Assembly: GCF_964194025.1 (NCBI RefSeq)
Contig: NC_134477.1
Coordinates: forward strand, 7,564,001 to 7,628,000
Reading direction: 5' to 3'
DNA: 64,000 nucleotides
Source of the DNA: Convolutriloba macropyga
Lineage: Eukaryota
Positions 40,730 through 62,621 of the stretch are shown here, in pieces. Made by a program: the position numbers and the translations under genes. Under the pieces are notes generated by a model. That model was not told the DNA's origin. It ran no database searches and saw nothing but the letters and a program-made list of their open reading frames with translations. Numbering within the stretch: the stretch's first letter is position 1; each line of letters begins with the position of its first letter.

Positions 40730-41260
40730 GCAATTTCCTGCTGTGCTGGAACTGCGCTTTTCTTAGAAAGAGAGAAAGTCATGTAACTAAGTCGCTCAAT
40801 TAGTCAGTCATCTTTTATTGGGAAATTACGCTCAAGCAGTGAGGTAATTTTTGCGGTGCTCAAGCTCAAAAAGGGAGGCAGTCATTTATTTACTACGCTC
40901 TATTAGACAGGTATCTTTTCCTAGAACATTACGCTCAAACAGTGAGGTAATTTTTGCTGTGCTCAAAAAGAGAGGCAGTCATTTATCCAATGCGCTCAGT
41001 TTGTGAGGCATATATAATTAGGAAATTACGCTCAAGCAGTGAAGTAATTTCTGCTGTGCCCGAAAAGGGAGACAGTCATTTATTTACTGCTCTGTTAGTG
41101 AGACATCTTAGCTTAAGAATTTACGATCAAACGGTGAGGTCACTTATGCTGTGCTCAAAAAGGGAGACAAGTCATTTAATTACTGCGCTCAATTAGTAAA
41201 GCGACTGACCTTAAGATATTACGCTCCAACATTTAGGTGGTTTGAGATGTGTTCAAGGGA
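40730..41260. repeat. Degenerate tandem repeat, ~100-bp unit, about 5 copies
   Basis: Recurrent TTACGCTCAAGCAGTGAGGTAATTT...GCTGTGCTCAAAAAGGGAG.CAGTCATTTA at ~40826, 40928, 41025, 41120 and 41218. Confidence 0.85.
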
Positions 41261-46659: not shown

Positions 46660-46699
46660 ACGCTAGTAAGCACCGATCTTCAAAATATCGGCTCATAAG
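46660..46699 (+). repeat. Left 40-bp flanking direct repeat (long TSD-like)
   Basis: ACGCTAGTAAGCACCGATCTTCAAAATATCGGCTCATAAG, identical to 62582-62621. Confidence 0.95.
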
Positions 46700-46812
46700 A
46701 GTAGTATATAATACCTACGTAAAGAAAGGGGGGTTATCATTCGACTCTTAACCACAGGATAATAGGTAGTGGCGGTTAAGTGGGAATAGGATAGGCGGGA
46801 TAAAATCTTTCC
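46700..46812 (+). repeat. Left terminal inverted repeat
   Basis: 46701-46812 is the reverse complement of 62471-62583 with one substitution and one indel in the G/C run. Confidence 0.96.
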
Positions 46813-47024
46813 GCCGCTGTTTATTGCCGTTTGGATTGTTCTATTCCGCCGTTCTTGCTAGTTCTTTCTGGTCGTTTGAATTTAACGCTACATGTAAAAA
46901 GTAGTCTCATTGCCCTAAAAGAGGGGAGGGGCTTATTATGTGATATTTAGACGTGTGATTAAGTGGTTTTGGTCAGTTGTTAGCAAAAATTGATCATTAT
47001 TGGGAGAATGTGTGCATAGATCAA

Positions 47025-47201
47025 ATGGCAACTATAGCAACGCTTGATTTGAAAAGTATTCACGAAACTTACAAGGAAATCGAAAAAGAATATTCACAAT
47101 ACGGTAAACGATTTTTATACTTTTTAGCCACTTGTTTGCATTTGGATCCGGATCTTGATTTGGATATTGCGTTGATGTTGCGGCCGTTGAAGTTGAAATA
47201 G
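47025..47201 (+). CDS. Small hypothetical viral protein (58 aa)
   Basis: ATG at 47025 in AAAATGG-like context; first ORF of the co-oriented gene block; no recognisable motif. Confidence 0.4.
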   Translation: MATIATLDLKSIHETYKEIEKEYSQYGKRFLYFLATCLHLDPDLDLDIALMLRPLKLK

Positions 47202-47249
47202 AAGCTTTCAAGAAGTATCTTTCTCTACTGGAGTACTTTCAATTGTACC

Positions 47250-47504
47250 ATGTCTTTACAAGAGAAAATGAAAAGGTTGAAACTAACCCCTTTACGTACG
47301 CCCAAGCGTGCAGTACCAGTTCTGATGTCTCTGGACGATGAGACTCTTCCCGATGACATCAAGCAGCTGATTAAAGAGAACAATGTAGAGTCAATTGTTT
47401 TTAGAGATAAACAAGATTCGATGAATGCAAACTATACAATCACTTACAAACAAGGAGACGAAGACTCTGGATATGTTTCTTATGAATTTTTTATATTTAA
47501 ATAA
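47250..47504 (+). CDS. Small hypothetical viral protein (84 aa)
   Basis: ACCATG start, protein-like composition, co-oriented with the block. Confidence 0.55.
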   Translation: MSLQEKMKRLKLTPLRTPKRAVPVLMSLDDETLPDDIKQLIKENNVESIVFRDKQDSMNANYTITYKQGDEDSGYVSYEFFIFK

Positions 47505-47558
47505 TTATGTAAAAATTCCTGGAAAGCAATTCATTTTTTTGAACAATTTTATTTCACA

Positions 47559-47834
47559 ATGAGTCAAACCGAAGATCAATTAGATTCGGGTGCAGGCATA
47601 AACGACTTGGTTTTTGACGCCGAGCACCAAGAAAGACAATCTTGGAGGTTTTGCAATTCGAGATTGCCTCGATCAGAGGTTGTATACTTTACACAAATCA
47701 TTATAATAATTTTTCTTATAACTGTATCTCTCACCAAGTTGGTTTTTTTCAGTCTTGACTGTGAAGAATCCACATTTTGGTTTTCACTTCTTTCTTGTAC
47801 AGTTGGATACGCTCTTCCAAATCCAAAGTTATGA
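47559..47834 (+). CDS. Small two-TM membrane protein (91 aa)
   Basis: Two hydrophobic segments (VVYFTQIIIIIFLITVSL; FWFSLLSCTVGYALP); its stop overlaps the ATG of the ATPase (ATGA). Confidence 0.8.
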   Translation: MSQTEDQLDSGAGINDLVFDAEHQERQSWRFCNSRLPRSEVVYFTQIIIIIFLITVSLTKLVFFSLDCEESTFWFSLLSCTVGYALPNPKL

Positions 47835-48560
47835 ATAAAGTTATTTCTACCAATGACCGGTTGTTCATGGCTGTTTGGGCCGTCTTGCAGCGGAAAAACT
47901 GAGCTCATTTTCAAAATGTTATTAGTTGGCACATTTTTCCCAGAGTTTCAAACAATTTATTATTTTTATCAGCATGATCAGCCAAAATTCCAATCGTTAG
48001 AGAAGAAACTGAACATACATTTTAAAAAATTCTCCAATTTTGAGCTCATTTCAGAGTTAGAGAACTGCCTTCTTGTGTTCGATGATTCATGTGAAGAAAT
48101 TTTTAATGACAAAGAATTTTCCAAATTAGCAACCGCAGGGCGACATAGAAACATCAGTGTAATTTATGTTAAACACAATTTGTTCCAGCAAAGCAGATGG
48201 TCCAGAACAATTGATCTAAACACAACACATATCATATTGTTCAAATCACCCCGTGACACACAACAGATTAGTTTTATTGGTCGACAGTTGAATAATGCAC
48301 AATTTTTAAAAGAAAGCTATGAGCTCGCAACCAAAGAACCGTTTGGTCATTTATTAGTTGATTTGGATCCAAAAACATCAGACGTCTTGCGCTACTGTTC
48401 AAATATTGTTCCTCCAGGACCATCAATTTTTTATCTGCCATCAGCTAAAGCCGTTATCACAAATTTGAGCGATGAGAGAGAAAGAAGTTTGTATGCTGGG
48501 GCGGCTGCTAGACATATCGGATACAAAACTAAAAGAGAAGATCGAGAGAGCTCCAAATAA
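47831..48560 (+). CDS. FtsK/A32-like DNA packaging ATPase, probably frameshifted near the N-terminus
   Basis: Walker A GPSCSGKT, Walker B LLVFDD, GRHRNISVIYVKHNLF. The natural-looking start MNKVISTNDRLFMAV (47831) is out of frame with GPS at ~47876; the ORF track uses ATG 47853. Confidence 0.92.
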
Positions 48561-48771
48561 ATTCATTAAATTCCTTTGCGAATGTTTGCTCAACATTGTC
48601 AATGGTAATGTTCCAATAAGAAAAAGTGTTGTAGAAGGTTATGAAAAATCATTCAGAAAGCTATTGTCTAGACAAACAAGTTTGAAAGAAAAGAGGCAGA
48701 TTTTTGCTAGAGAAACAGATTTGGTCAAAATTGTTGGTTTCGCTTGTTATCGATATTTGACAAAATCATAA
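48493..48771 (+). CDS. Conserved small Polinton protein (LCECLLNIVNGNV motif)
   Basis: CECxxNxxxGNV motif recalled from small Maverick proteins; overlaps the ATPase end; stop overlaps the next ATG (TAATG). Confidence 0.75.
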   Translation: MLGRLLDISDTKLKEKIERAPNKFIKFLCECLLNIVNGNVPIRKSVVEGYEKSFRKLLSRQTSLKEKRQIFARETDLVKIVGFACYRYLTKS

Positions 48772-49520
48772 TGCGCACCGAAGAATTCATTTTAATTCCA
48801 AAACGAATGTTTGCTTCACATCAACCGGTAAAAAAAGAAGTTTTGGACAATCCCCTTTATAAACAGAAAGCTGCACAGCTGTCTCTTTTGCAAAGAAACC
48901 AGTCCAACTCAATGGAAAAACCAGAGAAAGCATTTGAACCAGTTGAGACTGCAAACAAACTGATGATTGAAACAGCAGAAGAGGAGAAAACAGAACCCAT
49001 GAGCGAAGACAGCGAGATTGAACCGGTAGTGAAAAAACAAAGAAAAAGCGACGATTTCACCTCTATAATGATAGAGCTAGAAGTTATGAATAAAAACCAA
49101 ATCAAAAGATCAAAAATCATACTTGACTTGATTAACCAATCTGAAACAGTCACCATAGAGTCGAACGACGTTCTTCACGTTAATAAAGAAACACTGGGCA
49201 TCAAAGCTTTAACATTTTTGTACAATCTACAGCAACCAACTAAAAAAATTGACATTGAAAAATACTCAAAAATTTTATTTGCTCTTAATATCTCACCTCA
49301 TCTTGTTGCAAATACACATGCCAAGCAAATCTTGGAAGCCTCGTCTGAAAGTGAACAAGAATTTTTCCCAAGTAGAGAACAACCCAGTCAACAAGAGTTC
49401 TCCTCTACTGGAGAACGACTCAGTGGCTCAAAACCAACCCGAAAAAAATATAAAGAAGAAACGGACCAAACGCCAGACAAAGAAGAGACCAGTCAGAAGA
49501 TGTGGTCTTTCTTTTCCTGA
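48771..49520 (+). CDS. Polinton hypothetical protein (249 aa) upstream of integrase
   Basis: Long ORF starting at the TAATG overlap; charged low-complexity regions flank a globular core. Confidence 0.75.
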   Translation: MRTEEFILIPKRMFASHQPVKKEVLDNPLYKQKAAQLSLLQRNQSNSMEKPEKAFEPVETANKLMIETAEEEKTEPMSEDSEIEPVVKKQRKSDDFTSIMIELEVMNKNQIKRSKIILDLINQSETVTIESNDVLHVNKETLGIKALTFLYNLQQPTKKIDIEKYSKILFALNISPHLVANTHAKQILEASSESEQEFFPSREQPSQQEFSSTGERLSGSKPTRKKYKEETDQTPDKEETSQKMWSFFS

Positions 49521-50524
49521 AGTAAAAAAATTGGATCAGTTGTATTTAAAAGGACCAGCTTCGTATGGAAGCATAAAACGACTACAGACTCAAAGCAAGC
49601 TCCCTATAGGCAAAGTCCTGTCCTATTTGGAGACAAAGCCGTCTTTCACAAAGTACCGTTCAATTCGATTAAAATTTCCTAGGCTTAAAGTTTTTGTAAA
49701 AGACATTAACGAAATTTGGTCTCTAGATTTGGCACACGTTGATAAATTAGCAAATTATAACCGCAACATCAAGTATCTCCTAGTAGCGGTTGATTGTTTG
49801 TCAAGATATTTACGTTGATAAATTAGCAAAGTATAACCGCAACATCAAGTATCTCCTAGTAGCGGTTGATTGTTTGTCAAGATATTTACGAGTGGAACCT
49901 TTAAAAACAAAGTACGCAACAGAAGCAGCTGAAGCATTCAAAAAGATGATCAAAAACAAACAGCCCGAAAAAGTATGGGTTGACGATGGCACAGAATTTC
50001 TGGGAGAATTCAAACAATTGTGCAACAAACGCGGAATTCAGTTATATAGTACTTTCAGTGAAAAAAAGTCAGCTTTTGCAGAGAGGAACATTAGATCTCT
50101 CAAAAAGATAATTCATCGGTATCTCGAAGAAAAGTGGACCTATAGCTACATTGACCAATTAGATCAATTTGTGAAAACAATCAATTCAAGAGTCAATCGA
50201 GTAACTAAAATTGCTCCCAACAAAGTTACAAAAAAAGATGTGCCACGACTAGTTTCATTGACAGTCCAAACAAGCTCAAATCAGAAGCCCAAGTTTTACA
50301 TTGGAGACTTTGTGAGAATAGTTAAAAAAGATAAAGCATTCAGGAAAAGTTACAAGCAATCGTTCACAGACGAAGTCTTTGAAATAACGGGAATACCGAC
50401 ATTAAGCCCACCAACATACTCCTTAGTCGACACAGACAAAGAACCAATTCAAGGAAAATTTTATCAACCAGAATTACAAGTTGTCAGGCTCCCTCTCGTT
50501 GAAAATGTCCAACAACCGGTTTGA
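49500..50524 (+). pseudogene. Retroviral-like (rve/DDE) integrase disrupted by a 76-bp tandem duplication
   Basis: WSLDL, LVAVDCLSRY, VWVDDGTEF, AERNIRSLK, GKFYQPELQ motifs. 49736-49811 is repeated at 49812-49887, causing a frameshift and a stop at 49816-49818. Start codon uncertain. Confidence 0.93.
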
Positions 50525-51389
50525 AGACGAGTTTACAGTTCACGTTGTTTCATCCGCTTCAATGGAAATATTTGATTCAAACACACTTGCATCATTTCGA
50601 AATTTTTTTAATGACGAAATTCAACTTGCAGGTGATTGGAGAGTGGCGTTAAGTGAAATCATATTCCCAACAAAAATAGAAAACATAGTAAACGGAGATC
50701 TAATTGTGTACAACTTAAAAGACTATGAAGATTCCCAAAAGATGTCTTCGGGAGCTAATGTTATTTCTAGACCTTATAGTGGACAACAATTTAGTTTTAT
50801 GCCAGGAACCTTTGATACAGTGGCACAACTTCTTGCTACAATTAAGCGAACAATTGGACTGCCCAATTTTTCTTTCAGAGAGTTGAAGAGCTCTGGAAAA
50901 TATGAAATTTTATTTGGCAAATATGAGGGAATTACATTTCCCAGCGAGGAAATTCCGAGCATTATTGGATTTAAGGGTATTCCTGACGGTAATGGAATAC
51001 ATATTGGGTACAAAATGATTCCCAATGCGAACAGGTTTATGAAAAGTGATGATACGAAAGCTTATTATGGGGAGTTCCCAGCTGATCTTTGTGCTGGAAA
51101 GCATCTAATTTTCATCTACACTAACATAATTGAATATCAATACGTTGGTGACACTAAGGCTCCTCTTTTCCGAGTCATTGATTCAAAACAACGTCTGAAA
51201 AATGGTAGTGTTTGTGAGCTTGAGCCAACTCATCGGATAGTTTTTACAAATTTAGACTATAAGAAGCTCCTAACCAACACAATTCAATCGATTTCAATTG
51301 AACTGAGAACGGAAACAGGACAATTAGTTCCCTTTTCGGGAACTGGAAAAGTTATTCTAACACTACAATTCAAAAAATTTTCCTCCTAA
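50505..51389 (+). CDS. Minor capsid protein (penton-like)
   Basis: FTVHVVSSASMEIFDSNTLASFRN...LAGDWRVALSEIIFP and FIYTNIIEYQYVGDTKAPL...ISIELRTETGQLVPF...LTLQF are typical of Polinton minor capsid proteins. Confidence 0.88.
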   Translation: MSNNRFEDEFTVHVVSSASMEIFDSNTLASFRNFFNDEIQLAGDWRVALSEIIFPTKIENIVNGDLIVYNLKDYEDSQKMSSGANVISRPYSGQQFSFMPGTFDTVAQLLATIKRTIGLPNFSFRELKSSGKYEILFGKYEGITFPSEEIPSIIGFKGIPDGNGIHIGYKMIPNANRFMKSDDTKAYYGEFPADLCAGKHLIFIYTNIIEYQYVGDTKAPLFRVIDSKQRLKNGSVCELEPTHRIVFTNLDYKKLLTNTIQSISIELRTETGQLVPFSGTGKVILTLQFKKFSS

Positions 51390-51390
51390 A

Positions 51391-51807
51391 ATGGATTCTT
51401 ATTATGCGAATCAAGCAACGTCTTTGCCTCACTTCTCTGGACATTATCGTCAAAGAGGAAGTGGTTTTGGAGCCCTAGCTGCAGGCATTGGACGTGTTGC
51501 GCTGCCTTTAGCACGTCGTTTCATTTTGCCTACAGCGAAGCGTATCGGGAAAGAGCTTTTGAAACAAAGTGTTCCAGAGATTTTGGATGTAGTCGGAAGC
51601 AAAAAATCTCCTAAACAGGCGTTTAAAAATACAATCGCAAAAACTGTTAAAAAACAGACTGGGGGATCTCGACGAAATACTTCACGTCGGAGGAAGTCAA
51701 GTCGAGTCAAGCCACAGAAAGCGATCAACAAACGCAAAAAAAACCATTTCAACGCACAGAGCTCCAAAAAGAAGTCGGTCAGATTTTTTTGCCAGAGTGA
51801 ACGATGA
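51391..51807 (+). CDS. Basic virion core-like protein (YYxxQ...QRGSGFG motif)
   Basis: QRGSG and QTGG motifs (candidate adenain sites), an amphipathic segment and an R/K-rich tail; lies between the two capsid genes. Confidence 0.8.
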   Translation: MDSYYANQATSLPHFSGHYRQRGSGFGALAAGIGRVALPLARRFILPTAKRIGKELLKQSVPEILDVVGSKKSPKQAFKNTIAKTVKKQTGGSRRNTSRRRKSSRVKPQKAINKRKKNHFNAQSSKKKSVRFFCQSER

Positions 51808-53114
51808 TCGCTAATTTGTTACCATCAGAAGCAACTCACAGTTCTTTGGATTTATTCGAAAAACCTTCTCTTTTAATAACTTTCGATGGTAGTTTTTGTG
51901 AAAAGTTGGGCCCAGTCTACAGTCCAAATGGACCCATGTTAGAATTTGAAGTCGCCGGTGACCGAAATAATTTTATTGACTTACAGAAAATTTTCTTGGA
52001 AGTAAAATGTAAAATTGTCCAGTCATCAGAAGCTGATTTGAGATATGACGCAGGAGCAGCAACAGATGTTACGAAGACAGATGCTCCCTATTTTTGCAAT
52101 AATGTGTTACATTCACTCTTCTCTGACTGTACAGTGTCTGCTAATGGACTAAAAATTTCAAACGCTAACGGAAACTATGCACATAAAAGTTTTATTGAAA
52201 CAGAATTTTCACATAACAAAGATGCAAAAAACACCTGGTTGGCATGTCAGGGTTACTCCTACGAAGAAAATCCAGGAGCGCTGTCAACTGCGGAAGTGAA
52301 CAGAAGGAAAGCCTTAGTGAGGCAATCAGCTGAGTGCACATTCTACGGTAAAGTTGCAGTCGACTTTTTCACCTGTGACAGACATTTGCTAAGTGGTGTG
52401 ACACTTCGCATTGCATTTAGACGGTCAATAGATGATTTTGTTATAATGTCTGACGATGCTGCCAAGCACTACAAAGTAAAAATTGTCGAAGCTAATTTGT
52501 ATGTGCGCAAGATGACATTGAACGATGATGTTGTATCGGCTATTGAAAAAACTTTATTAACAAGTCCAGCTTCGTATCCCTACCTGGAGACTCTAACAAA
52601 AACGTTTCTGGCGTCAACGGGTCTCCACAGTTGGAAACAAGAAGATATTTTTGCCAGAGAACCGATTCGTAGACTAGCAATTTGTCTGAACACTAACGAA
52701 GCGTTTCTTGGTAACAACAGACAAAATCCATTTAATTTCCGCAAATTCAACCTTGAGCAGATTTATATTTATCGAAACGGTTTACCTGTGGCAGACAGTC
52801 CGATATCAACAAGTGATGACAAACGTCTTTACTTTAACACAATATCCGATTTAGCTTACATCGACAATGGTCATGGAATAAGTTTGACAGATTACCCAAA
52901 TCATTTCATAATGGTTTTTGATTTGACCAGCACCCAACAAGCATCCCACGATTTTATTCATCCTGAGCTCACAAATTCGTCAATTTCTATTGAGTTGAAA
53001 TTTTCTGCGGCCTTACCGAACAATATAGAAATATTCATTATTGGCGAAAAAGCTAGCACAATATTTGTTGATAGTGCAAGAAGGGTATCAAAGAATCACA
53101 TTCTGACAAATTAA
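51804..53114 (+). CDS. Major capsid protein (double jelly-roll, hexon-like), 436 aa
   Basis: SSLDLF, LEFEVAG...FIDL..IFLEVKCKI, NNVLHSLFS, YAHKSFIET, NPFNF and FDLT motifs of Polinton MCPs; intact ORF. Confidence 0.93.
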   Translation: MIANLLPSEATHSSLDLFEKPSLLITFDGSFCEKLGPVYSPNGPMLEFEVAGDRNNFIDLQKIFLEVKCKIVQSSEADLRYDAGAATDVTKTDAPYFCNNVLHSLFSDCTVSANGLKISNANGNYAHKSFIETEFSHNKDAKNTWLACQGYSYEENPGALSTAEVNRRKALVRQSAECTFYGKVAVDFFTCDRHLLSGVTLRIAFRRSIDDFVIMSDDAAKHYKVKIVEANLYVRKMTLNDDVVSAIEKTLLTSPASYPYLETLTKTFLASTGLHSWKQEDIFAREPIRRLAICLNTNEAFLGNNRQNPFNFRKFNLEQIYIYRNGLPVADSPISTSDDKRLYFNTISDLAYIDNGHGISLTDYPNHFIMVFDLTSTQQASHDFIHPELTNSSISIELKFSAALPNNIEIFIIGEKASTIFVDSARRVSKNHILTN

Positions 53115-53116
53115 TA

Positions 53117-53548
53117 ATGGATGAAGATGATATTAATGGTTTAATCCAAGGTTGCAAAACTCTTAAATATAAATTCCATGGTGTGTTTGCGGCCAACAAC
53201 TTTCCGGATAAAATGAACAGAAACAGCTTCCTTATTGTTAATGCAGCGACTGCTGAAAATATTGGCAGCCACTGGTTTTTATTATGCAGAAAAAACAATC
53301 AACTTTTGTTTGCCGATCCCCTTGGTCAGCCCATTTCATCGTACAAACACCTATATCAAAGAATTGTTTCCGTTGGCAGCAATCACAACATCTATCAACT
53401 CTTGGAGATTCAACCAATTCAAAGAGCAAACTCTAAACTTTGTGGACTTTTTTGTATTTATATTGCTCATTTTGTTTTCAATGCTCAAAAACTTGTAAAT
53501 ATTAGCGATAATGAATTGATTCGTTTCGCTTTTCATATGATGTTCTAA
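53117..53548 (+). CDS. Adenain-like cysteine maturation protease, 143 aa
   Basis: FHGVFAAN, catalytic GSHW, FADPLG and IQ...LCGLFC. Confidence 0.93.
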   Translation: MDEDDINGLIQGCKTLKYKFHGVFAANNFPDKMNRNSFLIVNAATAENIGSHWFLLCRKNNQLLFADPLGQPISSYKHLYQRIVSVGSNHNIYQLLEIQPIQRANSKLCGLFCIYIAHFVFNAQKLVNISDNELIRFAFHMMF

Positions 53549-53578
53549 CCTTACTAACTTGAGAAATTTATTTTTTTT

Positions 53579-54283
53579 TCAAAACTTTACTTTTTCTTCA
53601 TACACAAAGCGAACACTCAATAAATCAGAATCAATATTCAATTTTCCATATCCACTCATAAAAATATCCATAATTTGACAAAAAGCGCCAGAATGAGGAC
53701 CATACAAAATTGTTTCAACTCTTCGTAAAGTTTCACTATTAACAAAATCAGTTTGAACTTGTTTCGATGGAGGCCGGGCATTGTAGATAGTTTTTTGAGC
53801 AACTACTGGCATCTTGGCACTCGGTTTGAGATTGACATTTGTTTGTTTTGCAGAGCTGCTTTTCGATAAATTGTTGTGGTTAGCAAAAGCTGGCAGTCGT
53901 TTGCGCACTGACTGTGAATCGGTTTTTTCTCCCGAACCGTTGAATTCGATTGCCAATTTGAGTTTTGTAAAAACGTCTCCATTAGTCTCCAAGTTTGGTG
54001 CAGTCCAAAACAAGAATTTGAAAGCTGTATAAACACAAGGCACAGGAAAGCTCTGATATCGTTTCACTGTTTCGTTTTCAAAAGTAGTTGTATCAATCAG
54101 AACGTGATAATGACTGTTTACTAAATTGCAAAATTCGGAATCAAAATGTGCACACACTGCATAAAAATTTCCAATAGAAAAGCTAGGTTTTTCTTCAAGA
54201 ATGAGAAATTTGAACTGTTTCTGAAATTGTTTAAAGTAATTTGGAGAACGCTCAAACATCGCCTCAACCATCGTTGTTGGCAA
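53579..54283 (-). CDS. Accessory protein with an HUH-endonuclease-like N-terminal motif
   Basis: Intact 234-aa ORF; YAVCAHFD-x9-SHYHVLID. The function call is tentative. Confidence 0.6.
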   Translation of the reverse strand: MPTTMVEAMFERSPNYFKQFQKQFKFLILEEKPSFSIGNFYAVCAHFDSEFCNLVNSHYHVLIDTTTFENETVKRYQSFPVPCVYTAFKFLFWTAPNLETNGDVFTKLKLAIEFNGSGEKTDSQSVRKRLPAFANHNNLSKSSSAKQTNVNLKPSAKMPVVAQKTIYNARPPSKQVQTDFVNSETLRRVETILYGPHSGAFCQIMDIFMSGYGKLNIDSDLLSVRFVYEEKVKF

Positions 54284-54581
54284 CTTCTTTTTGAATTTTT
54301 GGTTTCTTCGCTAGTGGTGGTTTTGTTGTTGACAGCTGGTCAGCCACTGAGTTCTGTATTTTGCTAGCTGAGCTGACCAAATTTTCAAACTCTCCAAGAG
54401 TTAGAGAAATTCTCTGTTCAAACTCGTAATCGTCTGTTGCTTTTTTGAACAATTTCAGAAATACATATGTCCCTGTCCTTTCATAGGTTTTCAGCGTTGC
54501 TCTGATTAAGCGCTTATCAGTTTTGGAAATATCGAAATAACAATCTCCAAACTCTGTGTCTTTAGTGGACGTGAAAGGCAT
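54264..54581 (-). CDS. PC4/Sub1-like ssDNA-binding protein (105 aa)
   Basis: FDISK..RLIRATLKTY..TGTYVFLKLF...RISLTLGEFENL...I...V follows the PC4 strand/helix pattern (GISLxxEQWxxL); C-terminal NLS-like PLAKKPK. Confidence 0.65.
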   Translation of the reverse strand: MPFTSTKDTEFGDCYFDISKTDKRLIRATLKTYERTGTYVFLKLFKKATDDYEFEQRISLTLGEFENLVSSASKIQNSVADQLSTTKPPLAKKPKIQKEVANNDG

Positions 54582-54706
54582 AGTGTGCAACTTGTTTTAT
54601 TATTTTCAAGTGTTATAATGTGTAAAACTCCAACTCAATGGGGCGGCAAGTTGGGTTTAAACAAGTGTCGTCAAACTGCCTAATTAAATCCAAATGATTT
54701 GTGAAT

Positions 54707-54743
54707 ACAGGCTCAAGTACGCCTATGGCGTACTTGAGTCTGT
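54707..54743. other. 17-bp stem, 3-nt loop hairpin
   Basis: ACAGGCTCAAGTACGCC-TAT-GGCGTACTTGAGTCTGT; one G-T pair, otherwise perfect. Confidence 0.9.
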
Positions 54744-54796
54744 CTGTTGTTCACATATTGCATAATTAATTTCAGCTGTGACCTTAGATAAGACAA

Positions 54797-55101
54797 AAAA
54801 CATATGTGAACCTAGGTGTGTACTTGGACCAGCAGTGCACTGTACACTTTTTATTGGAATTATATGCGTACCATATGTTTTGAGAACACAAATGTGAGCC
54901 ACCCTGGTTGGGCATTTGAACAAGCAGTGCAGTGTACACTGTTTATTGATATTATATGCGGACCACATGTTTTGGTTCTATAGAGAAAACAGATGTGACC
55001 CTAGGTGTGTATTTGGACCAGCAGTGAAGTGTACACTGTTTAATGGAATTATATGCGGACCATATGTTTATAACTTGGAACAGATGTGACCCTGGGTGTG
55101 T
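54797..55101. repeat. Degenerate ~90-100-bp tandem repeat, about 3.3 copies, with internal palindromes
   Basis: Units at ~54800, ~54888, ~54990 and partial 55081: ATGTGA.CCTAGGTGTGTA.TTGGACCAGCAGTG...GTACACT...ATTATATGCG.ACCA.ATGTTT. Confidence 0.9.
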
Positions 55102-55499
55102 GATATAATTAGAAGCACAAGTGAACCTACAGCAGTAAGGAAATTCTGATAAGAATAAACATGCACCAGCGTACAATGAAATGCTAATAATAAAATACGC
55201 TCTGGATAAGAACTGAGTTAGTACACACTATAAAGTGTATCGACCCATGTATAATAACAAAATTTAGAGCATATATCAGAGCACATACACTACCAAAATT
55301 AAAACCATATTTGACCCCAGATATAATTTGTTGAATTACACGTTGTGCAATATTACTTTAAAAATAGTTATTCATTTTCTTTAAACCTTGCGTTCAGTGC
55401 ACTTTGCTTTCTTTCAACAGTTCGTTACCAGACAAACAACTACCAACAGTCTTCTATCAAATTGGTTTTAGTTTCTTTCTCAAAATTTGTACAAAAATT

Positions 55500-56195
55500 A
55501 TGTCCGTTCAAATACTTGCTGAATCTGTAATTTCCTTGGAGCGAACATTGGTTTATCAGACAGTGTTCGAAAACTTTGTTGTGCTTATTCAACAGAAGAG
55601 ACAAGGCGATGTTTGGCAAACTTACCAGCACTGCTTGATACCCAAGCTTTTCATTAACGCAATTGCTTCGTTACCAGAGAAGACAGAACCAGCAGATTGC
55701 AGTGTTATTACATCAGGAGGACATTTACCTCCAAAAACTTTGCCAACATTTCAACATCTTGGCATGGAGTCATTACCTGACGACGTTAAACGAATTTTGT
55801 TTCGTTACGATTGCGACTGTGTGCCTCTGTTTGAAAACCAGCTAGGGGCTTATCAGGCTTGCGAAAACTTAGCTGACATGTGGGGCATAAAGTCATCACC
55901 TTGCTCCCCAGAAAATCAATCCCAATTGGATTCAGCCAGCTTGCCAGTAACACCAGCAGTTGATCCGAGTCCCAGTTTGACACCGACATCTAGTCCATCT
56001 CTCTTTGCGGGAATTCACAAGAACAATTCTACGGCTCTGTTCAGTGACAACCAGTTTGATACAAAGTTACTGTCAGCTACACAATTTCAAACACCAGAAC
56101 CAGCACGTGTTTTTGGTGTCACAGACACGCCAAAGATTTGCAATGCACCAAAGAAACGGCTACCTGAGAATACTTTAATGGACTTATTTGATTAA
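55500..56195 (+). CDS. Accessory hypothetical protein (231 aa) with S/T-P-rich C-terminal half
   Basis: Intact ORF, first ATG at 55500, divergent from the PC4-like gene. Confidence 0.7.
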   Translation: MSVQILAESVISLERTLVYQTVFENFVVLIQQKRQGDVWQTYQHCLIPKLFINAIASLPEKTEPADCSVITSGGHLPPKTLPTFQHLGMESLPDDVKRILFRYDCDCVPLFENQLGAYQACENLADMWGIKSSPCSPENQSQLDSASLPVTPAVDPSPSLTPTSSPSLFAGIHKNNSTALFSDNQFDTKLLSATQFQTPEPARVFGVTDTPKICNAPKKRLPENTLMDLFD

Positions 56196-57722
56196 CTTGA
56201 AAACTAAACTTAATGGAGCACCACAAAACTTTTATGTAGTGAGATGCTAACTTGATTTTGTTTCAAGAATGTGTGATTTCAACTTTTTAAAAGCTGAATT
56301 TAACTTTTTAAATCTGTTTTATAGCTTTAAATCTGCTGAGTCAAAGAAATTAAAACATTGCTACTGATCAAGTTCGAACATGTTCAGAAAAGACTTTCAT
56401 TATAACGTAAACATTTGTTTCCTAACAAACACTCAATTATTACAACTACTATGACGTGGTGAGATTTTTCAATATTATATCCAGAAATACTTTTCCCAAT
56501 CTGCAAAACTTTTGTTATTATTATATACATTAAACATAAAGTTTAGAGATATAGCCATATATGAGAGTATGCGGTATTGACGCTAATAACATGTTAACTC
56601 CATGCCACAGCTGTAGCATGGATTGAATTCCAAATTCAATTCATAAGTCGAAGAACTGTTCAAAAAATAAAAAATAATCAAAGAAAATATTTCGAAAAAA
56701 TGCATTTCAAACGTCAAATTTTGACACTTAATTCAGTAGATGCCCTCTTCAGCTTACACTAGAATCAACTCTCATTTGTTACTTGGGGATCAATTGAAAA
56801 AAAAGAGCATGTTAGTTTGAAAAAAAAAGAAAAAAACTCAAAAAAAAAAATTTTTTTAACACATGACCTCTGACCTTTGACCCCAAAAAAGAGGGTTCCA
56901 AAAAATACTTGGGATGAAACTGATTGTTCAGTAAGACTCAGCATACTCTAAAGTACAAAACATCTCATCACACTCGTCAAATTTTACTCGTCCGTTATGG
57001 AGATAATTAGCCTCTAATTAACGACTAATTAAGGGTTAATTAACCTAATTACTAATTACTGAAAAAAAATTCAAAATTTTGCAACGGTTTTGTACTCACT
57101 GCTTGATGCCCGACATTATTGCTCATAAGGATCATCATCAAAAAACGGCTCCTTCACCGATTTTCGAAACATCTGGCAATTAATGTCACATTAACATCTG
57201 GCATTAATTAGCATATGAAGTACCCTAAGGAAAGATGTTAGATCGGTTTTCTTTAAATTTTTGGACTTATTGGGCCCTCAGTGTAAATTTATCTCATAAC
57301 AGCTGTCATCAAAAAAGGCCTCAGAAAAAAGACACATGTTTGTGTCATGTAACTGTCATGTAATTGTTAATTAATGACTTGATTGACAGAAAAACAAACT
57401 TTTTTTCTGTTTATTTTTGAGCAATTTTTTTATATGGGTCCTATGTTTTTCGGCACGGGGAGCAATTTTGCTCATCACACTTAAGAACGTAGGACAACTC
57501 TAACCATCCGTAATTGAAAATGCATAAAATAGCGCTTTTTATTACAATTTTGAATATTAGCATGTTTTTCCAGGTTCTCAAAAAAAGTTTTTTGACACAA
57601 ACGATGATCAGCAATACTCGGTAGGGTTCCCTGTGGTGGTATATTTTGGCATACGATTGCAATGGAGAGTTGAAAACACATCTTTTTCTCTCAAAAGTAA
57701 CAAAATTTCGAAATAAAGGTAT

Positions 57723-57775
57723 GCGCCAAAACCGACCAATCAGAAAACAGCATTTCAAAACTTCGAATTTGGCGC
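57723..57775 (+). promoter_or_regulatory. Candidate pPolB promoter: two inverted E2F sites, CCAAT box, CHR-like element
   Basis: GCGCCAAA 57723-30, CCAAT 57736-40, TTCAAA 57754-59, TTTGGCGC 57768-75; 120-170 bp upstream of the ATG. Confidence 0.55.
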
Positions 57776-57894
57776 CTATGCAGTACTGTAGTCTCTAATA
57801 CTGTAAACCCGAGAAACCATTTCTTGTTCATTCGTTTCTACTGTTCGTACTCGAGTTTAACAATTCGTTCTTACTAAAGTTAGACAATTCAAAA

Positions 57895-60800
57895 ATGGGT
57901 TTCCAGTGTCGTTATTGTGATTCTATTCTGAGTACAAAAGGAAATCGCTCCAGGCATGAGCATAAATTCCATCCTGATGAGATTGGTTTACCCGTATATC
58001 AATGCTCATTATGTGAGTTTACTTGTCGGAAGATTTCTTTGCTCGAAGAACACATGAAAACTGCACACCAACGATTCACCAATTGCTGTCAAAGCTGCCT
58101 ACTCGGATTCAACGATTGCCATCTTTACGTACAGCATATGACTTCCGTTCATCACTTACCCGTTCTAGGTGAACAATTTCAGCCTCGAGACACTCCGTTG
58201 GAAAGTGCATTCCATGGAGTACTGAGATCGTTCGAGTCAACAGCGGCCGAAGAGTCCAACGATCTCGAAAACTTTATGCGGATACAAAAACCCAAAATAG
58301 ACACTCTAATAAGTGAGCAGTTGACCCAGGGTCCTCAAAAAGTTCAACTGTGTGCAAAATTGCGGCTTGTCAAAGTTATGTATGATGAGCCAGATACGCC
58401 AGAAGATGACCGTATTGAAATATACGCAAACTCTTTGATGACTCCTGTCTATGCAAACGGACTGTCGGATGAAGCGTATTGGCAAATGGTGGAGAAGATG
58501 ATGAGCGTATTGACAACATTCAACTCTTTGGGGAGTGGTTGGACACTCGAAAAAGTTCTCAAAGTTGACGTCAAATTCGCACGTTTCAGACCAATTCTTG
58601 GTTCATCATACATCGCGTTGCCGTCAGAAATTGCCAACTGCAGAGGATTGCTCAACGTTAGGAACCACGAAGATCGAGATTGCTTCAGGTATTGTTTTGT
58701 GGCCGCTTATCACATGTATCATCAGATAAGTTTAGATAGAATTGATCGTAACTATCAAACCGACAAAACTTCACCAACTACATACAATCAACCAGGACTG
58801 CATCAACCTCTGGGCGATTTTACTATGCCCATGGGCTTTGCAGACATTCCTCAATTTGAAAAACTCAACAACGTTCAGGTAAACGTGTTTGGATACGATA
58901 ACGGCCAGTTTTTCCCTCTAAAAATTTCGTCATACAGCTCAGATTTTGTAATGGATTTACTTTTGCTGTACGACTGTGACCGTCATCACTACGTCCTGAT
59001 TACAAACCTGGTGAAGGTTGTTTGCTACGTGCGAGGATTTGATTACAGATTCTCCTACAAAATTTGTCGAAACTGGTTTTTGATTTGTCGAGAAGGACTT
59101 GAAGGTTACAACCTACATCTCAATAACTGTTGCAAAAATGCGCCTGCTGTTATTCATATGCCTTCAAGTGAGAACAACTCATACAAATTCACGAACTTGG
59201 CTGCTACATGGTTTGTCCCTCTTGTTATCTATTTTGACTTCGAGTCTTTCTTACGACCCGTGTCTTCTTGCAAGGGACCAAGTGATAAAGCCTTTACACA
59301 GGTCAAGGAGATACATGAACCGTGTGGCTTTGCGCTAACAGTGATAGATCACCACTCATCAAGGCCAATCTTTCATCATGTAGACAGTTCTCCTGCTTGC
59401 ATGACAAATTTTGTCAAAATGCTTCACAAACTAGCCAGAGATATTCATCAGCAGAAAAGGAAGCACCCTTTCTTCAAAGGCGATAGACGAAACTTGGGAA
59501 AGTCTAACGCTACGCACTGTTGGATTTGTGAAAAATCGTTTTCAGAAACGGAAGATCCAGAGAACACAATTGACCTGGACCATTGCCACTACAGTGGTAA
59601 ATTCTTGGGATGGGCACATGAGAAATGCAATCGCTTGAGACGAAATATCAATTTCACCCCTGTTGTGGGTCATAATATTCAAAATTATGACTTACATCAC
59701 ATTTGCTTGGCACTGAATAACTGCGAGCCAACCACAACCATCAGCGTCATACCAGCCACCGACGAAAAATACATATCAATGACATTTGGTGTGCTTATTG
59801 ACACTTTCGTAACGGAAAAGGGAAAAACAGTGAAAGTTTACGAATATCTTCGATTCATAGACTCCTTCAAGATGATGAACAGTTCTTTAGAGAAACTTGT
59901 TGAAATTTTACCCGATGACCGTTTCGAAATAATGGGGGCAATGTTTTCTACATTATCTGATGCTAACCTTCAGCTACTTAAACAGAAAGGCTACTACCCT
60001 TACTCTTATGTGACTAGTCGGTCCAAGTTCAGTGACACCAGTCTACCGCCACTGAACAAGTGGGGTAACACTCTGGACGGAGGGGCAGTGAAGGTAACGG
60101 AGACTAATTTACAACATGCACGCAGGATGTGGGAAATTCTGGAATGTGGAACACTGCAGGACTATCATGACTCATACTTGAAGCTCGACTGTGCACTACT
60201 CGCATGTGTTTGCGAATTCCATCGACAGTTGAGTTTCGATACGTATAAACTGGACTGTATGCACTTCTTCACCCTACCCAATATGGCTAAGGAAGCATCA
60301 CTTAGAATCTGCAAAGCCAATGTCGAGTTACTGACTGAGCGCGACCACTTGGACATGATTGAACCCGCAATTCGCGGTGGAGTCACATCTGTCTTTGAAA
60401 GTCGGCGCTTCACTGCAAATAACTCCTATATTCCTAACCATGATAGCACGGAGGAATCCTGTTTTGGATTCTGTGTCGACGCTAATAACCTTTATGGTGG
60501 CGTAATGCAATTAGAGAAACTACCGCTCGCCGAATTTGCGTTCAACACAGATATTCAACTTCAAGAGATTTTGGACACCGCCGATGACGCTAGCATTGGA
60601 TACTTTGTAGAGGTCGATATCTCTTATCCGCCGAGCCTTCATGATGAGCATCGCGATTTTCCGTTGGCACCCACAAAAGACATGGTTGAAGATGAGTGGT
60701 TGAGCGATTACCAGATCGAATTAAAAGAACAACACAATCTCCCATCTTCCAAAGTAAAGAAACTCCTGCAAACGTTCTTTGATAAAGAGAGATACGTGGT

Positions 60801-62240
60801 CCACTACAAACTGCTGAAACTTTATGTCCAACTCGGCTTGGTAATCAGGAAAGTTCACAGAGTGCTTCAATTTCGACAAGAAAACTGGCTGTCGCCATAC
60901 ATTACACTAAATAGTGAAAAGCGGCAAGTTGCGTCAAACAAGTTTGAAGAGAACTTTTATAAACTGATGAATAATGCAGTTTATGGTAAAAACTGCGAAT
61001 CGAAAAGACGCAGAAATAAAATAACAATCTCACGAGATGCCGAGCATGCGCTGAAGATAATATCCAGATTTGAGTTTGATCGCTATATGATCTTTGGGGA
61101 GAATTTAGCAGCCTTGACCACACGACCAAAGTCCATTTATTGGAACACTCCCACTATTGTGGGAGCGACTATATTAGATCTTGCAAAATTCCACATGTAC
61201 TCATTCCATTACAATGTCATGCGACCCAACTTTAATTGTCGCCTTCTTTACAGCGATACAGATAGTCTCCTTTATGCGATAAAAAGCGACGATTTTTATA
61301 CAGAGTTATCGCAGAAGCCTCAGTCAGTATTAAGTCATTTTGATTTCTCAAATTACCCACCCAATCACTTTCTTTACGATACCACTAACAAAAGAGTCGT
61401 CCTCAAATACAAGGACGAATTCGCCGGCGACTATATTACTGACTTTATCTGTTTGAAGCCGAAGCTGTACTCCATCCTGTCAAAAAGTAAGTTTATTCTC
61501 TCATAAAACAAAATTGTTAGTTGTTGTATAAAAATTCGTATTGGGTTAATAGGCATCTGGAAGGTGTTAAATCGTATTATATTTACATAGGGGGTTAGTA
61601 ATTATAATAGCACCTAATTTTTCTCATTTCTTTCTTTCTTTTAGGTTGTCGAAAACTTTCAGCAAAAGGGGTGACGAGGGCCGCACAACAACATCTTCGC
61701 CACGTTGACTTCCTAAACACTCTCAGCACTGGAAACCACCTGCGCTCAGAGAACACCAGGATTGTGTCCGACCACCACAGGCTGCAGACAGTTACTACAA
61801 ACAAAATTTGTCTGTCAGCTTTTAACAACAAGCGCTATATACTACCCGATGGCACAAAAACCCTCCCGTTTGGCCATTATGAAATTGTCGATTATGCTAT
61901 CGATGAAATTGATTGGAATAACGACGATGTGGAATGGGATTATGACGATTTTAGCGACTTACTTTTGAGCTCTAGCCCAGATTGGGATAACAGTTTTGTT
62001 GTACCACATTCCTCTCCGGATACCACCCAAAGCTCCAACACATGGCAATCACCAGACCCCGGTTTTGTCGCTGCTCAGAATATAAATGATTCGGATATTG
62101 AAAGTAGCGATATCGTTGATTTCGATGCCAGTTTTGAAGAAAACTCTACGCCCGATAATCCGTTCATTAATTTTGAGGCAGAAGAAGCAAGTGAAAGCGA
62201 GTCAGAGGGCCCAGTGTGCAAAACTGCAAGGCGATATTAG
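57895..62240 (+). CDS. Protein-primed family B DNA polymerase (pPolB), two exons (57895-61486, 61645-62240), ~1395 aa
   Basis: YFDFES, GHNIQNYD, FIDSF, KGYYPY, YLKLD, DANNLYG, KLMNNAVYGK, YSDTDS and LKPKLY in exon 1; SAKGV...KR...TLPFGHY in exon 2; three N-terminal C2H2 fingers; EndoVII-like CWIC...DHCH...AHEKCN insert. Confidence 0.96.
61487..61644 (+). other. Spliceosomal intron (158 bp, phase 1) in pPolB
   Basis: GTAAGT donor, CTAAT branch site at 61614-18, long pyrimidine tract, TAG acceptor; splicing restores ILSKSCRKLSAKGVTR. Confidence 0.9.
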
Positions 62241-62470
62241 TGTGCATAATTAAATTTAATTGCCCAGAGAGAGACACGCAAAACTGAACCAGTATTGATT
62301 TTGCATGCAGTGTGATATTTGGTTTTAATTTAATTTGTTTGAGTGTTTTGAAATCAAAAGCAAGCGGCGAGACAGAAGGCAAAGTTAAAGGGAAACAAAA
62401 GCGGCAAGACTCAAAAGGGAATGATTGAATAGGAGAGGGATATAAACAGCGGCATGATTGAATAGGAGAG

Positions 62471-62583
62471 GGAAAGATTTTATCCCGCCTATCCTATTCC
62501 CACTTAACCGCCACTACCTATTATCCTATGGTTAAGAGTCGAATGATAACCCCCCCTTTCTTTACGTAGGTATTATATACTAC
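62471..62583 (-). repeat. Right terminal inverted repeat (lacks the final T)
   Basis: Ends ...GGTATTATATACTAC; the perfect complement of the left end would be ...ATACTACT. Confidence 0.96.
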
Positions 62584-62621
62584 GCTAGTAAGCACCGATC
62601 TTCAAAATATCGGCTCATAAG
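62582..62621 (+). repeat. Right 40-bp flanking direct repeat
   Basis: Identical to 46660-46699; the first two bases (AC) are shared with the TIR end. Confidence 0.95.

Follow-up and report, generated by a model that had tools for sequence, protein, structure and literature searches.

Two overlapping minus-strand genes, O230 and O105, are likely to be standing parts of the Polinton lineage in which they occur and not a captured rolling-circle origin. They lie in the window, that is, the whole 64,000-nucleotide stretch of Convolutriloba macropyga DNA analysed here (NC_134477.1, positions 7,564,001 to 7,628,000), where O230 occupies 53579-54271 and O105 occupies 54264-54581, with the overlap (8 bp) that had been noticed originally. 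In the reading favoured here, which seems about as likely as not, a DNA-binding but non-nicking O230 and a strand-coating O105 would serve protein-primed replication of the element, with a two-way promoter that bears a clade-specific hairpin. The original prediction had proposed a captured rolling-circle origin cassette whose parts would co-occur in sister Polintons. This proposal is not supported, since the two ORFs stand in one order in 13/13 sampled families, at O230 identities down to 30%, whereas the hairpin is present in five of the 13 families and missing from eight, the 97-bp repeat unit is confined to the window's family (1/13), and the tyrosine expected of a nickase is not conserved; co-occurrence thus holds for the ORFs in all families and not for the hairpin and repeats, which are absent or different in many. 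The favoured reading comes near the other option offered at that time, in which an origin- or enhancer-binding system would have been repurposed.

Host Polinton and conservation of the gene pair

The element that carries the pair is a Polinton of 15.9 kb (46700-62583, no strand assigned) with TIRs at 46725-46812 and 62471-62558. According to a Pfam scan of 13 ORFs, it contains an A32-like ATPase, a C5 protease, pPolB, and a weak rve match (E 0.058); the Polinton/Maverick hallmarks, namely TIRs, pPolB, RVE integrase (weak), packaging ATPase, and adenovirus-type protease, are present. The gene order is ATPase, integrase, minor and major capsid, protease, O230, O105, control region, O231, and pPolB, in which the putative capsid genes, two ORFs of 436 and 294 aa that match nothing in Pfam, are named only by their position and size. 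The integrase frame is split into two pieces (49318-50524) and contains a 76-bp tandem duplication (49736-49890), the pPolB frame has a likely GT-AG intron at its end (61488-61645) and, in hairpin-less families, pPolB shows an extra gap of about 140-190 bp near residue 332. A direct duplication of 38-40 bp flanks the element (46663-46700 and 62584-62621), far longer than the 6-bp target duplication of Polintons. Outside the element, the window holds a near-perfect, MITE-like inverted repeat with arms of about 66 bp (1266-1402) and a tandem array of a different unit, with a period of 97 bp and 4.4 copies (40767-41197).

The Polinton load of the source genome is very large: each O230 search gave between 2,300 and 4,143 candidates at first look, no fewer than 13 families are present, and internal tandem duplications of 1.5-10 kb are found in several Polinton copies. 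When 40 of 1,050 candidates in this 1.18-Gb genome were scored, the cassette had at least 41 full-length matches at 95-100% identity, the window included. The families are groups made in this analysis by O230 similarity: when diverged O230 proteins served as seeds for searching the genome, 11 families (42-80% identity) were recovered, and two further, far families share 30-32% identity in O230 and about 62% in the major capsid. The order protease, O230, O105, O231 is kept in 32 of the 33 loci checked, as well as in the two far families (8/8 places). Among the loci listed, L043/L044, L098, and L103 are repeats of earlier places. Both genes are under purifying selection between families, with dN about one fifth of dS (dN 0.10 / dS 0.50 and 0.32 / 1.45 for O230; dN 0.22 / dS 0.91 for O105). 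Moreover, a profile search with O230 among 1.84 billion representatives returned 368 proteins at E 0.001 or better, and the best 150 of them include homologues at 25-38% identity in Logan, ENA, NCBI, and JGI records, the Polinton setting of distant homologues being shown solely for the two families in the source genome. Scans of viral and metagenome contigs gave no O230 relatives, and the one O105 match found there (L105) was rejected as chance, covering 50 residues inside an unrelated Cys-rich ORF.

Predicted folds and conserved residues

O230 is 230 aa long when counted from its ATG; the ORF of the originally proposed 234-aa protein is real, and only its length had to be corrected. A structure model built from 77 sequences (pLDDT 83.1) shows two confident domains, an N-terminal one (about residues 1-125) and a C-terminal one with a conserved helix-helix-strand-strand arrangement (residues 179-224), joined by a loose, low-confidence linker (residues 138-173). 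In the VIA search, every one of the first 14 rows belongs to a Rep nuclease domain or to the origin-binding domain of E1 or large T (Z 5.0-3.5, rmsd 3.1-4.2, 75-94 residues), the Reps being those of a nanovirus, a circovirus, RepB, a geminivirus-like source, and AAV; 60 of 48,161 chains reached Z ≥2, and the C-terminal domain was barely covered by the search. The top six Foldseek rows are pMV158 RepB (best E 0.035), and the named viral rows of the fold search are mostly Rep or NS1. Searches of Pfam, PDB sequences, PHROGs, and ESM Atlas returned nothing for O230. Neither O230 nor O105 has a structural match at Foldseek E 0.001, and all their Z scores lie below 8, a range where a shared arrangement can be a common one. 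The N-terminal domain is given a predicted HUH/Rep fold at modest scores, in agreement with the HUH-like gene first proposed.

The PC4-like gene of the original prediction fared similarly. O105, a protein of 105 aa, is modelled with four strands, one helix, and a basic tail (pLDDT 73.6). Foldseek places fungal Sub1 and the PC4 homologue of phage T5 in its first four rows (E 0.03-0.07), PC4/Sub1/Pur proteins fill eight of the top ten VIA rows at modest Z scores (6.1-6.7), and ESM Atlas places it in a PC4 cluster at 0.87, which has lead value at most. The Pfam PC4 profile matched one of 68 O105 homologues (E 0.011), and this match does not rise above the cut-off. Each of these scores is modest by itself, and the fold is accepted because the searches agree; O105 is thus predicted to be a PC4/Pur-fold protein, of a type in which PC4 and Pur are not distinguishable. 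By analogy with the members of this family, O105 would bind ssDNA.

The metal-site residues of O230 are well kept among 77 aligned homologues (His42 in 74/77, His54 in 72/77, and His56 in 70/77), and motif II, a His-hydrophobic-His on a strand together with a further ligand, is recognizable, residues 55-60 forming a strand in the model. The spacing of His42/His54/His56 resembles that of His39/His55/His57 in RepB, which, according to the available part of PMC5030251, binds Mn through His39, Asp42, His55, and His57 and cuts through Tyr99. Two cysteines of the N-terminal domain are also near-invariant, Cys48 (72/77) and Cys79 (76/77). No tyrosine is conserved in this alignment, which includes near-copies and some decayed copies: Tyr81 is found in 39/77 rows and Y-x2/3-K in 17/77, and 25/77 homologues have no Tyr anywhere in residues 79-90. 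Judging from the aligned ranges, helix 80-87 may correspond to the motif III helix. Tyr12, by contrast, is present in O230 of all five hairpin families, which counts against the favoured, non-nicking reading. In that reading, His42, His54, and His56, together with Cys48 and/or Cys79, could bind a structural metal at the former active site, most probably zinc.

The same residues could belong to a tyrosine-independent enzyme, in which either a three-His metal centre activates water, as in a structure-specific nuclease, or an invariant Cys or His acts as the nucleophile; such an O230 could process, for example, replication or excision intermediates. The helix that bears the catalytic Tyr in Reps begins, in O230, with Cys79, and homologues of 25-38% overall identity retain all three His. 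E1 and large T lost these His, whereas O230 has not. Nevertheless, a filled zinc site is the simpler explanation for two conserved Cys next to three His, and we know of no Cys-linked HUH chemistry, hence this alternative is regarded as distinctly improbable. A version that joins both proteins, in which a rolling-circle initiator has become an enzyme that needs no tyrosine, has a Cys2-His3 metal centre, and acts with a PC4-type SSB on the hairpin or on terminal DNA of the element, seems quite unlikely. This joint version would, if real, mean that HUH proteins have a further, new chemistry and that the protein-primed replication or the excision of Polintons includes a second step based on nicking.

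Hairpin, repeats, and control region

The hairpin reported originally, with 17-bp arms, was confirmed at 54707-54743 (no strand assigned). Its arms, 54707-54723 and 54727-54743, are 94% complementary around a 3-nt loop, its DNA fold reaches -21.3 kcal/mol (z -8.05, 0/200 shuffles as good), and a distance of 125 bp separates its start from the O105 ATG, the hairpin being on the upstream side. Across five families, the palindrome keeps an upstream position, 122-170 bp from O105, and it is present in 30/30 copies of the window's family, in 8/9 places of P05, and in 8/8 each of P58, P44, and P52, but in 0/38 rows from six other families; L061, which has no O105 start, was dropped from this intergenic count. 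With one copy per family, the five hairpin families fold at -16.5 to -19.1 kcal/mol, and seven of the 13 families have no inverted repeat above shuffles in the first 320 bp. One far family has an unrelated, weaker inverted repeat (-9.2 kcal/mol, 0/40 shuffles as good). This repeat (L146:5428-5467) pairs 13 of 14 bp around a 12-nt spacer, about 48 bp upstream of the PC4-like gene. The source genome contains 362 exact hairpin cores, against 0 for a reversed control, and the first 15 places among them are all beside O105; the pattern was found 0 times in the viral contigs scanned.

The 11-bp inner arms are invariant in the five families, whereas the loop, of 3-4 nt, varies in sequence and length (TAT, TAC, AGC, CCAC, TCAC, and others). 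These 22 core bases do not change although synonymous sites of the same families differ by 37-77%, thus something reads them, a point counted against the favoured reading. The five families form one side of the O230 tree (support 99/97, and 91/95 with outgroups, not starred), on which the hairpin requires a single change; its presence in five families, therefore, represents one event and not five. This single origin could also suit a hairpin that is unrelated to O230 and O105 and works as a structured RNA, as part of a 5' leader, or as a site for a host factor, having arisen a single time within one clade. The outer stem shows some two-sided change (2/17 pairs, with 7/500 shuffles as high), of a level that can arise in related sequences without structure, yet 11/17 pairs never vary, which points to a reading of sequence and not of shape alone, and no Rfam family matched (best E 0.65, all far below gathering scores). 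An unrelated hairpin is considered a lesser but real possibility; it is compatible with the favoured explanation of the proteins, and the likelihoods given to the two are not exclusive.

A closer link is supposed when O230 is taken as an HUH protein that still nicks and whose target is the hairpin in its extruded form. The hairpin would then be a rolling-circle origin inside the element, or else a resolution site, and the repeats would be iterons. The pMV158 origin, as described in the accessible part of PMC5030251, has such a layout, with a hairpin nic and a direct-repeat bind site, and RepB nicks the apical loop of its hairpin. The HUH fold with RepB as the best Foldseek match, the intact His triad, and the resemblance of hairpin and direct repeats to that origin would all fit, as would Tyr81-x3-Lys85, which accompanies the hairpin in 28/28 readable copies of the window's family (tyrosine counts per family refer to copies with a readable motif). 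However, Tyr81-x3-Lys85 also occurs in four hairpin-less families (P67, P74, C86, and P77), and Tyr81 is lacking in four of the five hairpin families: P05, P58, and P44 have no Tyr in the motif III-like helix (24/24 readable copies), and P52 has Tyr86 and no Tyr81. Tyrosine and hairpin do not co-occur family by family. The four families without Tyr81 are young and multi-copy, with many copies at 95-99% identity, hence they spread without a need for it, unless other families supplied the protein. Furthermore, RepB nicks in the loop, and it is the loop that varies in this hairpin; an invariant stem with a variable loop is the reverse of the pattern of a RepB-type nick site. The scan of 13 ORFs turned up no helicase family, though RepB too borrows a host helicase. 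Taken together, a nickase seems improbable; in the window's family, the combination of Tyr81-x3-Lys85, hairpin, and intact metal site speaks against the favoured reading and makes activity conceivable.

Rearrangements give a mixed picture of the same question. All three tandem-duplication junctions that could be mapped on the window (a small sample) lie away from the hairpin, against a nickase, and the joints in contigs of two runs from one study are scattered, one of the 15 among the joints listed touching the hairpin. Two independent deletions, again a small sample, end in the hairpin loop, which favours a nickase and was counted against the favoured reading; they may reflect cruciform fragility. 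Both deletions (L057 = L098, and a joint at 54598-54710 in runs X1/X2) start just upstream of the O105 start, and each carries a short, templated-looking insertion.

The hairpin belongs to a non-coding block of about 115 bp (54636-54750, no strand assigned), common to the five hairpin families at 75-85% identity and likely to be the proximal promoter of O105 and O230. Farther away, O231 (55500-56195, plus strand), a third conserved gene, which the original prediction had not mentioned, is transcribed away from O105 towards pPolB; since the two genes run in opposite directions, the 918 bp between them lie upstream of two divergent gene sets and are likely to be a two-way promoter. O231 has a conserved N-terminal domain and a Ser/Pro/Thr-rich tail, with no family match, and is missing in L119/L120, where pPolB directly follows the hairpin. 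A by-eye resemblance of O231 to PC4 was discarded, as its profile comparison with O105 gave a probability of 0.2%.

Between block and O231 lies the repeat array (54793-55101, plus strand), in which the roughly 3.3 copies of a palindrome-containing repeat of about 95 bp described originally were recovered as units of 92-97 bp with short palindromes (8-12 bp). Three 84-nt copies start at 54797, 54889, and 54986, with spacings of 92 and 97 and identities of 75-90%, followed by a partial fourth copy (55079-55101); TRF reports a period of 97, 2.9 copies, and 74% matches. Three units are found in 29/30 top copies and four in three others. The periods differ by family (75, 97, 142, 180-198, or 355-426 bp, or none), and the match of the 97-bp unit to another family spans just 24-26 bp, which also tells against a nickase with iterons: the unit is family-specific, and short motifs alone are shared, so that no conserved direct-repeat iterons are seen. 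Over 11 families, in counts inflated by the repeats, these oriented motifs are GATAAG (24 on the plus strand and 2 on the minus strand, against 1.6 in shuffles), RGGTGTG (13 and 0, against 0.9), and TGACCY (20 and 3, against 2.9), which we take to resemble GATA, T-box, and nuclear-receptor sites, respectively; GATAAG is absent from the two far families. Judging from its sequence, the array is likely to be an enhancer with family-specific duplications.

These features could also indicate that the main role of O230 is to regulate transcription. It would bind as a Rep-derived dimer to an inverted repeat in front of its own operon, and O105 would join it as a coactivator resembling PC4; the outcome would be autoregulation or a switch from one of the divergent gene sets to the other. 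The position of the palindrome within a conserved promoter-like block in five families, the weaker inverted repeat upstream of O105 in the far family, and invariant arms with a free spacer, as in a dimer site, are consistent with this, and PC4 is itself a coactivator. Nevertheless, O230 is kept in the seven families whose first 320 bp hold no inverted repeat above chance, and the palindrome spacer is not fixed (3 or 4 nt); a role mainly in regulation is thus unlikely.

Known systems and a possible role in replication

O230 and its surroundings share with pMV158 RepB, its double-strand origin, and the Rep/NS1 nuclease domains of CRESS viruses and parvoviruses the predicted HUH fold, a third His upstream of H-U-H, an N-terminal domain with a separate C-terminal one, and a hairpin and direct repeats close by. 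Unlike them, it has no conserved Tyr or fused helicase and has two extra near-invariant Cys, its hairpin has a variable loop and is absent in 8/13 families, and its element is linear, with TIRs and pPolB. Also comparable are the origin-binding domains of papillomavirus E1 and polyomavirus large T (VIA rows 8, 9, 12, and 13), which have an HUH fold without conserved nicking chemistry. Polyomaviruses have a two-way control region with a palindrome and enhancer repeats, and a gene adjoining such a region is a further likeness; however, O230 keeps the His triad, lacks an SF3 helicase, and resides in a protein-primed replicon. According to the part of PMC4405056 available, the E1 and large T domains are inactivated HUH domains, and Polintons are thought to replicate by protein priming. 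O105 has the strand-strand-strand-strand-helix unit of PC4/Sub1, the phage T5 PC4 homologue, and Pur-alpha, although its identity to them is 13-21% and PC4 and Pur are inseparable.

HUH genes occur in other mid-size dsDNA viruses with jelly-roll capsids, at least as far as the accessible portions of the sources go. The HUH proteins of mriyaviruses, in which motif III is retained, are predicted to be active; these viruses have no DNA polymerase and an OB-fold SSB (PMC11253617), whereas pPolB is present here and the Tyr of O230 is not conserved. Zora/VC218 Polinton-like viruses also carry HUH genes, and some of their genomes have an RVE integrase as well (10.64898/2026.06.19.733378). In adintoviruses, 'Adintoc' and 'Oncoid' are conserved unannotated accessory genes, and Oncoid lies upstream of PolB, as O231 does (PMC8502044, in part). 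The main text of that source, as far as available, gives these accessory genes no fold or SSB assignment and contains 0 matches to PC4, SSB, or DBP; the Adintoc lists in its supplements may hold the O230 and O105 families under an Adintoc number. No HUH or PC4 is mentioned in the main text of PMC10748475, no HUH or SSB in that of PMC11161782, and no HUH in that of 10.1101/2023.10.06.561300, and the available parts of PMC11296320 and PMC11662393 mention HUH in other contexts only. In the main texts and listings covered, mostly of non-subscription literature, no description of the O230/O105 pair in Polintons was found. The system can be regarded as partly new, a variant built from known parts.

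In the favoured, replicative reading, O105 would coat the displaced strand, as protein priming displaces single strands. The Rep-derived O230 would bind DNA without nicking and help to bind or melt the origins that belong to the element itself, its termini in all likelihood, on the model of papillomavirus E1 and polyomavirus large T with their inactivated Rep domain, while its C-terminal domain may oligomerise. No O230 binding site was identified at the Polinton termini, which was counted against this reading. The hairpin would be a cis element gained once in one clade, within the O105/O230 promoter, and read as a symmetric site or cruciform, and the repeats would be recent enhancer duplications and not iterons.

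No SSB or origin-binding helper for Polintons is named in the literature examined, and O230 and O105 are two concrete helper candidates; young copies of the lineage that carries them number in the hundreds. O230 likely adds to the Rep domains that became part of a dsDNA replicon and lost their tyrosine in the process, such as those of E1 and large T, but here the metal site was kept and two cysteines were added. Moreover, the tyrosine and the hairpin each occur in some natural families and not in others, and the function can thus be tested on unaltered proteins.
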